A stretch of 64,000 nucleotides of DNA. Source: Methanomassiliicoccales archaeon PtaU1.Bin124 (GTDB lineage: Archaea; Thermoplasmatota; Thermoplasmata; Methanomassiliicoccales; UBA472). The translations under genes were made by a program, and so were the position numbers. The notes under the pieces are model-generated. The model had not been told where the DNA came from, ran no database searches, and saw nothing but the letters and a program-made list of their open reading frames with translations. Position 1 is the first letter of the stretch, and each line of letters starts with the position of its first letter. This document shows positions 27,615 through 28,757 of this stretch, in pieces. The stretch is taken from contig MVRC01000012.1 of assembly GCA_002067865.1 (NCBI GenBank), forward strand, positions 93,395 through 157,394, given 5' to 3'.

Positions 27615-28757
27615 ATGGTGAAGACGATGGCGGAACAGAACGGAGCGAGGGTAGGGGTCTTCATTTGCCGATGCGGCGGACAGATAGGTCTGAGCCTGGA
27701 CATGAGCAGCCTGGAAGAGCATGCGCATGCCGGCAGCGATGTGGTGGCGGTCCGCACCTGCGATTACCTTTGCCATGAGGAGGGCCGGAAGATGATCACC
27801 GAGACCATCAAGAGCGAAAGACTGGACCGGGTGGTCGTGGCGGCCTGCAGCCCCAAGCTCTATCTCGAAACGTTCCAAGAATCGGTCGTACAGGGCGGAC
27901 TGAACCGCAACATGATCGACATGGCCAACATCCGCGAGCAGGTGGCCTGGGTCCATCAGAAGGACAGGGCCGCGGCCACCAGCAAGGCCGAGGACATGAT
28001 GGACATGGCCATCGCCAAGGTCCGGTACCATGAGCCGGACGACCGCGGCAACATCTCCGTGGTCAACAAGAAGCGCTGCACCGGTTGCGGGATATGCGAG
28101 TCGGTATGCAACGTCAACGCCATCACCCTCTCTCCAGATGCTGAGTATGGCGGCAAGAGGAGGGCCAATGTGAACGCCAAGGCCTGCGTGGGATGCGGCG
28201 CCTGCGTCTCCGCCTGCCCCACGGCCGCCATGGATCAGACCTACTTCTCCAACAAGCAGATCCTGGCGCAGATCGACACGGCGCTGGCTCCGAAGGAGGA
28301 CGAGGTCTCTTCGCCCAAGATATTGGTGTTCAGCTGCAACTGGTGCTCATACGGTTCGGCGGACCAGGCCGGGCTGAAGCGCCTGGACATCGACCCCCAC
28401 TTCAGGACCGTGCGCACCATGTGCTCGGCCAGGGTGGACCCGGAATGGATACTGAAGGCGCTCTCGATGGGCGCGGACGGGATACTCATACTGTCCGGCA
28501 GGCCGGGACGATGCCACTATGACGTGGGGAACATCCGCACCAGGAAGCGCATGACCCTGCTGAAGATGGTGCTGAAGGAGTACGGCTTCGACGAGAACCG
28601 GTTCCAGATCAAGTTCGTCGATGCGGACCAGCCAGAGAAGTACGCGGAGACGATCAACGAATATGTCCAGATCATCAAGGAACTGGGCCCGAACCCGATC
28701 GTCCCGACCTCGATCGTCGACCCGAAGCGGGTGGAGCTTCCCTACCTTAACCTCTAA
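27615..28757 (+). CDS. HdrA N-terminal Fe-S domain + HdrA C-terminal 2x[4Fe-4S] ferredoxin domain (no FAD domain) fused to MvhD
   Basis: 380 aa. [13 protein letters not shown]...[16 protein letters not shown]...[11 protein letters not shown] matches the HdrA N-terminal domain. [11 protein letters not shown] and [18 protein letters not shown] match its C-terminal ferredoxin domain. [18 protein letters not shown]...[10 protein letters not shown]...[17 protein letters not shown] matches MvhD. Confidence 0.8.
   Translation: [380 protein letters not shown]

Follow-up and report, generated by a model that had tools for sequence, protein, structure and literature searches.

The 64,000-nucleotide stretch of DNA analysed here (the window), from Methanomassiliicoccales archaeon PtaU1.Bin124, encodes a protein in which the two terminal iron-sulfur domains of HdrA follow one another directly and run into an MvhD. 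This raises the question of what an HdrA-like protein might do when its flavin domain has gone. A previous sequence-only reading described the protein as HdrA with the flavin domain excised and offered two roles for it, a split, re-wired bifurcation module or an iron-sulfur electron wire. The features that bear on this question are listed below; we refer to the 380-residue product as the arm protein.

26914..27498, + strand: rubrerythrin with a C-terminal rubredoxin-like domain (PF02915, PF21349), directly upstream of the arm gene; candidate electron acceptor
27499..27614, + strand: 116-bp spacer between the rubrerythrin gene and the arm gene, read from the sequence
27615..28757, + strand: arm gene, 380 aa, ATG start; HdrA N-terminal domain, HdrA C-terminal 2x[4Fe-4S] ferredoxin and MvhD
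27645..28034, + strand: HdrA N-terminal domain ([4Fe-4S] "HA3 / shuttle cluster"), residues 11-140, with C18, C20, C53 and C78
28056..28289, + strand: 2x[4Fe-4S] ferredoxin corresponding to the HdrA C-terminal ferredoxin (HA1/HA2) plus terminal helix, residues 148-225
28314..28694, + strand: MvhD/FlpD domain, residues 234-360, with [2Fe-2S] cysteines C241, C244, C270 and C300
44503..45774, + strand: stand-alone HdrA flavin core, 423 aa, class A6; candidate partner of the arm protein

The arm protein consists of HdrA iron-sulfur domains and MvhD

To define its domains, the arm protein, which is 100% identical to the NCBI MAG protein P0001, was compared with family models, solved structures and its own predicted fold. 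Pfam placed PF02662 (FlpD/MvhD) at full length on residues 236-358 (positions 1-123 of 123; 146.9 bits against a cut-off of 22.3) and a 4Fe-4S dicluster domain (Fer4_7) on residues 154-205, and it detected no FAD or pyridine-nucleotide family in the 380 residues. The NCBIfam HdrA2 model (NF040770, 777 positions) matched in two stretches totalling 365 bits, far short of its cut-off of 1100 bits. The stretch listed pairs residues 148-360 with model positions 572-774, the N-terminal part was matched by HdrA models at positions 2-123 and 6-155, and HdrA2 positions ~141-571 had no match in the arm protein. In phmmer searches of the PDB, residues 11-161 aligned with HdrA residues 4-154 of 5odc_A and 12-162 of 8rvu_a, residues 140-225 with HdrA 576-654 of 8rvu, and residues 233-360 with MvhD chains, while HdrA residues ~162-575 had no counterpart. 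The AlphaFold2 model was compact and confident (pLDDT 90.7, pTM 0.89), and Foldseek matched it to HdrA chains at E ~1e-16 and to the MvhD chains 5odc_D, 7bkb_F and 8rvu_F at rmsd 0.9-1.0 Å and TM 0.90-0.95. Pfam, NCBIfam, phmmer and AlphaFold2/Foldseek thus confirm that the protein comprises an HdrA N-terminal domain, an HdrA C-terminal ferredoxin and a complete MvhD. The motifs cited earlier, including GRPGRCHY, are all present in the sequence.

Measured against what defines an HdrA, the arm protein has the N-terminal iron-sulfur domain and the C-terminal 2x[4Fe-4S] ferredoxin (C155, C158, C161, C165, C191, C194, C197 and C201), with their cysteines kept. The thioredoxin-reductase-like FAD domain (GxGxxG; E356/K409 in 5odc numbering) is absent by Pfam, NCBIfam and phmmer, and a cryptic FAD-binding segment, sought by alignment and profile, was not found, in agreement with the claim that the flavin domain had been excised. 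The inserted ferredoxin and HA4 cluster are likewise absent from the arm protein, and both occur in the separate 423-residue product. As an MvhD/FlpD, the protein contains the full-length FlpD domain with its four [2Fe-2S] cysteines. Altogether, these results show that the arm protein is only the iron-sulfur "swinging arm" of HdrA, fused to MvhD and without a flavin core.

Among known proteins, Methanosarcina HdrA2 (MvhD-fused, NF040770), which is type Ia in PMC12054007, has the same N-terminal iron-sulfur domain, C-terminal ferredoxin and MvhD in the same order. The arm protein differs from it in being short of ~430 residues (FAD domain, HA4 cluster and inserted ferredoxin), its gene is not beside hdrB2C2, and from its sequence it is predicted neither to bind FAD nor to bifurcate. 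MvhD/VhuD, the [2Fe-2S] subunit of F420-non-reducing hydrogenase, corresponds to the C-terminal 127 residues, a complete MvhD that shares 40-44% identity with MvhD chains of known structure and superimposes on them at rmsd ~1 Å; in front of it the arm protein carries a further 230 residues with three [4Fe-4S] sites, and mvhG/mvhA are not beside its gene.

In the MvhAGD-HdrABC, FdhAB-MvhD-HdrABC-Fmd and ElpABC-HdrABC complexes (5ODC, 7BKB, 8RVU), a mobile arm composed of the HdrA N-terminal domain (HA3), the C-terminal ferredoxin and MvhD/ElpC moves as one body (PMC12350162, PMC13518236). There, two hinges tether both HdrA domains to the flavin core and MvhD is a separate chain, whereas in the arm protein the hinges are joined together, MvhD is part of the same chain and the polypeptide has no core. 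Because the three modules retained are those of the mobile arm in solved Hdr complexes, we regard the protein as a free-standing arm and not as a damaged HdrA. This correspondence with a structurally defined unit was absent from the earlier reading.

The arm architecture is conserved across Methanomassiliicoccales

The window is part of a metagenome-assembled genome and the loss of the flavin domain is clean, so the gene could in principle be a decaying remnant or an assembly artefact, i.e., HdrA2 shortened by an in-frame deletion in a single MAG. However, searches of NCBI, JGI, ENA and Logan yielded 109 independent protein clusters (90% identity level) of like length (335-424 aa) and the same architecture, which are 42-100% identical. 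In 65 homologues, 15 of the 16 cluster cysteines are invariant (C18, C20, C53, the eight of the ferredoxin and the four of MvhD), and the sixteenth, C78, is kept in at least 90%. Further cysteines at positions 99, 104, 110 and 210 differ by subfamily, and locus L005 contains arm paralogues in tandem. We conclude that the arm architecture is conserved across Methanomassiliicoccales and that the cluster count, the cysteine conservation and the confident AlphaFold2 model refute an artefact or remnant, which we consider extremely improbable. In a separate profile search with a generic ferredoxin pattern, the only HdrA-MvhD loci among the matches listed were bacterial (L007-L019).

A stand-alone flavin core covers the HdrA part missing from the arm protein

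The gene at 44503..45774 had been claimed to encode the very part of HdrA that the arm protein lacks, and our results bear this out. Its product combines the thioredoxin-reductase-like FAD domain with the cysteines of HA4 and, as an insertion, the 2x[4Fe-4S] ferredoxin. It matched the HdrA2 model at positions 141-555 only (342 bits), which is complementary to the arm protein, and its alignment with 9sfi_A spans 146-561. In the alignment, residues E217 and K270 fall on E356 and K409 (5odc numbering), the role of which in HdrA is described in PMC12054007. The same work defines class A6 / A0 as flavin cores without N- and C-terminal domains, and the 423-residue product, with an FAD domain and HA4 and neither terminal domain, belongs to it. 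The DCxxC motif (Cys194/Cys197) is missing, with TMKEGRA opposite TLDCSMC, and it was found in none of the 26 core family members. In canonical HdrA, Cys197 of the dimer partner is said to contribute to the N-terminal cluster (PMC9012536). C49 of the arm protein was considered as a stand-in for this missing ligand and was rejected, since only 5% of homologues have a cysteine at this position.

These observations raise the possibility of a split HdrA2, in which the arm and the core would join non-covalently, possibly with HdrBC, and bifurcate electrons with the arm in trans. The two pieces are exact complements on the HdrA2 model, with the core covering 141-555 and the arm both flanks plus MvhD, and HdrA2 is the highest-scoring NCBIfam HdrA model for each of them. 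The nearest full-length relatives of both are MvhD-fused HdrAs, e.g. P0140, the break points coincide with the hinge positions of the mobile arm, and the core has kept the counterparts of E356/K409 together with its HA4 cysteines and its inserted ferredoxin. The arm and core genes also share a contig in the window, contig_6549, L089, L121, 805622, 115761 and 37111, and in the first four of these they are on the same strand.

When contigs were matched by their lengths, both genes were found on one contig in five assemblies (307853, 1418823, 805622, 115761 and 37111), and the short metagenome loci L089 and L121 also contain both. Only about one quarter of informative assemblies have the two on a shared contig, and where both occur they are 7.5-18 kb apart and never adjacent. 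The core was not found among the top matches for 15 contigs (88 kb to 2.56 Mb, five of them larger than 1 Mb) that carry the arm, in a test that is indirect and whose database prefilter may have let divergent cores go undetected. Conversely, large contigs of 1.06 Mb, 351 kb and 274 kb carry a core without a matching arm entry. Furthermore, the inserted ferredoxin is absent from most members of the core family, including P0124, which is 74% identical to the window core, and most members would therefore have no low-potential exit. The loss of Cys194/Cys197 throughout the core family, the absence of hdrBC from the window and the core's own conserved neighbours, i.e., sufCB, a glyoxalase-like gene and the F430 genes cfbE and cfbB, also argue against a joint enzyme, as does the complete tandem HdrA described below. 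We consider a split HdrA2 unlikely, and the evidence that the arm and the core must act as a pair is weak.

A complete type II HdrA is encoded beside mvhDGA

A separate full-length HdrA had also been proposed as something to look for, and one was found in a Methanomethylophilaceae locus (L058, 4457-7615), the only tandem-HdrA locus that could be assigned to this family. It encodes a type II (tandem) HdrA beside mvhDGA, in agreement with the description of the order Methanomassiliicoccales in PMC4153887. The protein is a complete enzyme of 1052 aa with two flavin cores, which sets it apart from the arm protein; it has its own N-domain and C-terminal ferredoxin, and the Cys194/197 motif is present in core 1. 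The arm protein resembles this locus at 38% identity in the N-domain, 46% in the C-terminal ferredoxin and 54% in MvhD. Tandem HdrAs of 1667-1687 aa were also considered as the main HdrA of Methanomassiliicoccales and were dropped, their MvhA cluster being named Planctomycetota.

The arm protein might accordingly be thought of as an accessory or alternative arm for heterodisulfide reduction, i.e., an MvhD paralogue through which a second electron-input module would feed the main type II HdrABC or HdrD/Fpo-like complexes. Various input modules are known to serve Hdr cores (PMC13518236), and the identity to type II counterparts (MvhD 50-54%, C-terminal ferredoxin 41-46%, N-domain 37-41%) is consistent with such a role. 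Extra mvhD copies occur in M. luminyensis and 'Ca. M. intestinalis' (Borrel et al., PMC4153887), and the arm protein is a candidate for the "mvhD2/mvhD3" of earlier genome papers. However, the Methanomethylophilaceae type II HdrA already has an N-domain, a C-terminal ferredoxin, a separate MvhD and the core-1 Cys194/197, and none of 49 arm loci has an hdr, mvh or fdh gene nearby. We therefore regard this role as quite improbable.

Arm genes often lie downstream of oxidative-stress genes

The genes surrounding the arm were compared in 49 full-length arm loci. Within the 100 kb lying up to 3 kb upstream of the arm there are 32 rubrerythrin (Rbr) or desulfoferrodoxin (Dfx) genes, and there are none in the remaining 372 kb of the same loci. 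When arm sequences with sufficient upstream sequence were clustered at 80% identity, the arm was preceded on its own strand by Rbr and/or Dfx in 12 of the resulting 22 lineages, at a distance typically of 80-300 bp, and the placement is repeated on short contigs in three more arm clusters. In six further lineages, the gene 92-233 bp upstream of the arm is divergently oriented and encodes an FMN_red protein that has an Isf-type cysteine motif. By contrast, the partners expected of an HdrA or an MvhD are missing: neither the window nor any of the 49 loci has hdrBC near the arm, mvhG/mvhA are beside no arm gene in the loci examined, and in the window and these loci the arm gene never adjoins hdrBC, mvhAG or the flavin core. 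Within the window, a tblastn search for HdrA and MvhD turned up no second homologue of either.

A TATA-like TTTAAAA is located in the spacer at 27573..27579, ~39 nt 5' of the arm ATG, and arm relatives have a TATTTAA box plus GGAGGA ahead of the ATG. These elements suggest that the arm gene is probably transcribed from a promoter of its own, and because of this the upstream position of rubrerythrin does not imply co-transcription. An inverted repeat is also present upstream of the arm gene; as a lead only, it is a candidate MsvR-type operator.

A proposed iron-sulfur wire to oxidative-stress enzymes

From its domains, the arm protein appears to be a flavin-free iron-sulfur electron-transfer protein in which the HdrA portion of the mobile arm is covalently linked to MvhD, and as judged from its composition it cannot bifurcate electrons alone. 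We propose that it serves as an iron-sulfur-only wire from the MvhAG hydrogenase to oxidative-stress enzymes, a reading that we hold tentatively and that falls a little short of being probable. That the protein is a wire can be read from the sequence; its donor, its acceptors and the direction in which electrons flow are inferred. Most likely, the MvhD and ferredoxin face would dock on an electron-input enzyme, for which the MvhAG [NiFe]-hydrogenase, encoded elsewhere in Methanomassiliicoccales, would be the obvious candidate donor. Single electrons would then travel along the four-cluster chain to acceptors other than a bifurcating flavin. Because of the conserved gene neighbourhood, rubrerythrin, desulfoferrodoxin (superoxide reductase) and an Isf-like iron-sulfur flavoprotein are the putative acceptors, and the outcome would be an H2-driven (or ferredoxin-driven) chain for the detoxification of peroxide, superoxide and O2. 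Where a stand-alone HdrA core is present, it may also be served by the arm, with no need for pairing. The broader scheme, in which a swinging arm freed from its flavin core became a dockable carrier delivering H2 electrons from MvhAG to rubrerythrin, superoxide reductase and Isf flavoproteins as well as to the stand-alone core, is possible but, in our estimate, somewhat unlikely.

Classically, electrons are supplied to rubrerythrin and superoxide reductase by rubredoxin and NAD(P)H:rubredoxin oxidoreductase. The likeness to this system would be one of functional analogy only, that of a small iron-sulfur carrier encoded beside rbr and dfx; unlike rubredoxin, to which it has no kinship in sequence or fold, the arm protein has four clusters and a hydrogenase-docking domain. 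Several points weigh against the wire to oxidative-stress enzymes. Neighbouring genes need not have interacting products. Unrelated genes, too, keep a conserved order around the arm, with an RmlD-like gene on the upstream side and SSF and Usp genes on the downstream side, and inherited synteny may thus account for some of the signal. In several lineages, including genomes of 2.56 Mb, 1.82 Mb and 1.42 Mb, Rbr/Dfx are not beside the arm gene, and rubredoxin is also encoded by Methanomassiliicoccales (PMC4153887). Of the two roles in the sequence-only reading, the iron-sulfur wire nevertheless fits better than the split bifurcation module, which is weakly supported, with co-location in about a quarter of cases and the genes never adjacent.

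Significance of a free-standing arm

The domains of the arm protein are individually known; for their combination in a free-standing arm-MvhD protein, no description was found in the searchable literature. Databases annotate it only as "hydrogenase iron-sulfur subunit", after its MvhD domain, and it was probably counted formerly as an extra mvhD. Surveys of HdrA that require the flavin domain miss it, and Hdr-related wiring in Methanomassiliicoccales, which are methane producers of gut and wetland, is therefore under-counted. The protein is also a natural experiment, in that the mobile arm, the proposed gate of Hdr electron bifurcation, is here a soluble 42-kDa protein, whose clusters, potentials and docking surfaces are directly accessible. 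Its linkage to rubrerythrin, desulfoferrodoxin and Isf suggests a power source for defence against O2 and peroxide in an order that includes the cultured Methanomassiliicoccus luminyensis. If this is true, these cytochrome-free, F420-poor methanogens would gain an H2-driven defence against oxidative stress made of bifurcation parts.

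A flavin-free protein joins the HdrA share of the mobile arm to MvhD

The sequence-only reading described an HdrA N-terminal domain, a ferredoxin domain and MvhD, with no FAD domain, in one open reading frame:

27615..28757, plus strand: arm gene, ATG start, 380 aa

This architecture was confirmed by Pfam, NCBIfam, phmmer and AlphaFold2/Foldseek, and all of the motifs quoted in that reading are present. Pfam placed a 2x[4Fe-4S] domain at residues 154-205 and a full-length MvhD/FlpD domain at residues 236-358 (146.9 bits), and its scan of the 380-aa protein, here called the arm, found no flavin or pyridine-nucleotide family. 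The N-terminal part matched NCBIfam HdrA models at positions 2-123 and 6-155. On the 777-position HdrA2 model two stretches matched, the listed one being residues 148-360 on positions 572-774, and the total of 365 bits was well under the cut-off of 1100. A phmmer search of solved structures aligned residues 11-161 with HdrA 5odc_A residues 4-154, residues 140-225 with HdrA 576-654 (including the terminal helix AMDQ..F...QI.AQI) and residues 233-360 with MvhD chains. The AlphaFold2 model, with 65 homologues as input, was compact and confident (pLDDT 90.7, pTM 0.89), and Foldseek matched it to HdrA chains (E ~1e-16) and MvhD chains (rmsd ~1.0 Å, TM 0.90-0.95). Sequence and model agree on predicted sites for three [4Fe-4S] clusters and one [2Fe-2S] cluster with no bound flavin, and on retention of the domains that bind the electron-input enzyme in solved complexes; the modules are predicted to pack into a single body.

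Previously, cryo-EM of Fdh-Hdr-Fmd, Elp-Hdr and Hdr-Vhu-Fwd complexes revealed a mobile arm that swings between two states, with the N-domain cluster HA3 as the shuttle cluster (PMC12350162; PMC13518236). Given the make-up of that mobile arm, the 380-aa protein corresponds to its entire HdrA share plus MvhD in a single chain. In the Hdr complexes two hinges lead into and out of the flavin core; here they meet directly, at about residues 141-147. The earlier wording, an HdrA with its FAD domain excised, holds for domain content but is less sharp than this description.

The arm resembles part of HdrA plus MvhD. Without the flavin domain it misses the defining feature of HdrA, and it is more than a plain MvhD. 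Surveys of HdrA that select for the flavin domain would leave it out (PMC12054007; PMC9012536), and it goes unmentioned in a fusion/fission survey of Archaea (PMC11237513). The only literature trace found is a listing of extra "mvhD2/mvhD3" genes (PMC4153887), a candidate match.

The arm family is conserved in Methanomassiliicoccales

An NCBI entry from a Methanomassiliicoccales MAG (307,853-bp contig) has exactly the sequence of the arm. Another 108 protein clusters (335-424 aa, 42-82% identical) share the arm's Pfam content, and full-length HdrAs enter the search ranking only from rank 111. Source names, where given, are Methanomassiliicoccales, Methanomassiliicoccus sp. or "Euryarchaeota archaeon". 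Alignments of 101 and 65 members show no variation at C18, C20 and C53 of the N-domain, at the eight ferredoxin cysteines or at the four MvhD cysteines, and C78 is kept in at least 90% of members. A decaying remnant or assembly artefact of one genome is scarcely credible, being ruled out by this conserved family and its invariant cluster cysteines. One locus, L005 (GCA_020725985.1), carries two tandem paralogues at 8703-9884 and 10001-11167 (P0104, 393 aa, and P0088, 388 aa); in both, identity to the window arm is only ~45%.

The canonical HdrA supplies its own arm

The hdrA of Methanomassiliicoccales was reported to lie beside mvhDGA and to be unusually long, with two FAD sites and three 4Fe-4S motifs (PMC4153887). 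L058, one of the loci retrieved with a DNA pattern, encodes a 1052-aa HdrA in which GxGxxG occurs exactly twice and CxxCxxCxxxC exactly three times. The 90%-identity cluster to which the L058 MvhA belongs bears the name Candidatus Methanomethylophilaceae / Methanarcanum. Within this HdrA the order is core 1 (FPTNDCSAC plus inserted ferredoxin), N-domain, core 2 (no Cys197) and C-terminal ferredoxin, with a separate mvhD next; the main enzyme thus comes with an arm and a Cys197 donor of its own. The window holds no other hdrA or mvhD homologue and, among its gene calls, no hdrB or hdrC candidate. That the arm serves as an accessory arm of the main Hdr complex seems improbable.

The arm is 38%, 46% and 54% identical to the L058 N-domain, C-terminal ferredoxin and MvhD, respectively, and its N-domain shows ~41% identity to that of canonical HdrA. 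HdrA2 is the best-scoring model for the arm and also for the stand-alone flavin core described below. An origin of the arm from an MvhD-fused HdrA through core loss is plausible.

Other rearranged HdrAs were encountered. [quoted passage not shown] At 6760-9878 (minus strand), L025 encodes a second Hdr-like pair, a 358-aa minimal flavin core followed by a 681-aa protein (flavin core, C-terminal ferredoxin and MvhD), in addition to a type II HdrA with MvhD. Five metagenome loci (L023, L060, L084, L107, L117) encode giant tandem HdrAs of 1667-1687 aa with a ~650-aa insertion in the first flavin core, adjoining mvhD, mvhG and mvhA; their MvhA cluster is named Planctomycetota bacterium, which marks these loci as bacterial.

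The stand-alone flavin core is unlikely to be an obligate partner

The missing part of HdrA was proposed to be encoded at 44503..45774, and the 423-aa product does match HdrA2 positions 141-555 (NCBIfam), complementary to the arm, and HdrA 9sfi_A residues 146-561 (E ~5e-73). It keeps E217 and K270, equivalents of E356 and K409, which are termed essential for bifurcation (PMC12054007), together with four HA4-type cysteines and an inserted 2x[4Fe-4S] ferredoxin. By sequence it is an intact HdrA flavin core, of known class A6, with shorter relatives in minimal class A0 (classes of PMC12054007).

Such complementarity would suit an obligate split HdrA2, with arm and core as one enzyme, but this reading is unlikely on several counts. 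The core has TMKEGRA in place of TLDCSMC and so lacks Cys194 and Cys197, and this motif is absent from all 26 members in the family alignment. Each protomer donates Cys197 to its partner's N-terminal cluster, and in tandem or fused HdrAs Cys197 and the N-domain are complementary (PMC9012536). The majority of the family (~350 aa) lacks the inserted ferredoxin, leaving no low-potential exit route. P0124, 74% identical to the window core, lacks this whole domain (346 vs 423 aa), so its gain or loss must be a recent event in the family. Both the missing cysteines and the ferredoxin-less relatives weaken the core as a partner for the arm.

The core also has its own conserved neighbourhood.

Genes around the stand-alone core in the window
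42393-43613, minus strand: sufB
43616-44425, minus strand: sufC
44503-45774, plus strand: stand-alone HdrA core
45777-46202, minus strand: glyoxalase-like gene downstream of the core
46242-47531, minus strand: cfbE (292.8 bits vs cut-off 250)
47718-49073, minus strand: cfbB (CfbB-like)

This arrangement, divergent from sufC-sufB and followed by the glyoxalase-like gene and the F430 genes cfbE and cfbB, is kept in the window, L004 and L133 (1.06-Mb genome). In L133 the core directly adjoins cfbB, a NifH-like gene and a nitrogenase-like Oxidored_nitro gene, the latter two probably CfbC and CfbD. One possibility is that the core supplies electrons to Fe-S or F430 chemistry and is not a component of an Hdr enzyme.

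In the window, arm and core lie 15.7 kb apart on the same strand, each monocistronic. Their orthologues on contig_6549 (1.42-Mb genome) are ~18 kb apart with the same neighbours, and two metagenome loci have the core downstream of the arm, at 7.5 and 8.9 kb; in none of these four cases are the two adjacent. Co-occurrence was assessed indirectly, by matching the lengths of the contigs in the arm list, the core profile search (whose prefilter scores only 8000 database candidates) and the metagenome loci to each other. Both genes were found on five contigs (307853, 1418823, 805622, 115761 and 37111). The ~80 family hits of the core search included none on arm contigs of 2.56, 2.45, 1.89, 1.82 and 1.29 Mb, or on those of 955, 629, 498, 301, 283, 121, 120, 109, 107 and 88 kb, and core contigs of 1.06 Mb, 351 kb and 274 kb had no entry in the arm list. 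Indirect as it is, this comparison argues against an obligate pair.

Oxidative-stress-type genes usually lie upstream of the arm gene

Directly upstream of the arm gene in the window is a rubrerythrin gene:

26914..27498, plus strand: rubrerythrin with rubredoxin-like domain

Rubrerythrin likewise precedes the arm in a 1.89-Mb genome, rubrerythrin and then desulfoferrodoxin precede it in L021 and L022, and desulfoferrodoxin lies 2 kb upstream in a 2.45-Mb genome. The analysis covered 49 loci in which the arm gene is full-length; at 80% identity they form 25 clusters. Upstream sequence of 700 bp or more was available for 22 clusters, and 12 of these have rubrerythrin and/or desulfoferrodoxin genes within 3 kb upstream on the same strand, usually at 80-300 bp; three clusters on short contigs likewise have them upstream. 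The 3-kb upstream regions (100 kb in total) contained 32 such genes, vs none in the 372 kb that make up the rest of these loci and three in 703 kb of non-arm loci. In six further clusters a FMN_red/flavodoxin-fold gene lies 92-233 bp upstream in divergent orientation, and its product carries a compact CxxCxxCx5C motif, typical of Isf (iron-sulfur flavoprotein). Isf reduces O2 and H2O2 in Methanosarcina. Altogether, an oxidative-stress-type redox enzyme is the immediate upstream neighbour in ~18-21 of the 25 arm lineages, a strong association that had not been expected. Several points qualify it: the rubrerythrin/desulfoferrodoxin link is missing in some complete genomes, the region likewise keeps unrelated genes in order (RmlD-like, SSF, Usp/DUF485), the arm gene seems, from its sequence, to have its own TATA box, and rubredoxin genes are found in Methanomassiliicoccales.

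Several other features of these regions were recorded. In L020, L061, L075, L076 and L101 an inverted repeat, CCCCGAACCTTCG-N5/6-CGAAGGTTTTGGGG, is conserved in the rubrerythrin-arm spacer ~60-105 nt before the arm ATG, and a TATTTAA box and a GGAGGA site follow it immediately. The window's own spacer shows no obvious copy. The repeat is either a rubrerythrin terminator or an operator, and its TTCG...CGAA core resembles boxes of the redox regulator MsvR. The window has two FMN_red/Isf-like flavoprotein genes, 21086..21673 (plus strand; 6 kb upstream of the arm gene, same strand) and 59809..60381 (plus strand), with 33% and 39% identity to an L090 protein (tblastn). At 14001..16000 the G+C drops to 0.48 vs ~0.60 elsewhere; ORF 14306..15097 (minus strand) within this dip has atypical codon-position G+C and may be foreign DNA.

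A possible electron wire to oxidative-stress enzymes

The sequence-only reading left open a split bifurcation module or an Fe-S-only wire, and we favour the latter over an obligate split HdrA2, although tentatively: the arm may well be an Fe-S wire from MvhAG or another input module to oxidative-stress enzymes. It would dock on the input module via its MvhD/ferredoxin face. Its exposed HA3-type cluster would probably be the site from which single electrons pass to rubrerythrin, desulfoferrodoxin and Isf-like proteins, reductions that would be thermodynamically downhill from H2. Where a stand-alone core is present, the arm may exchange electrons with it too. The architecture by itself is a neat yet modest finding; it is the conserved oxidative-stress link, together with a natural free arm, that makes the protein experimentally attractive.
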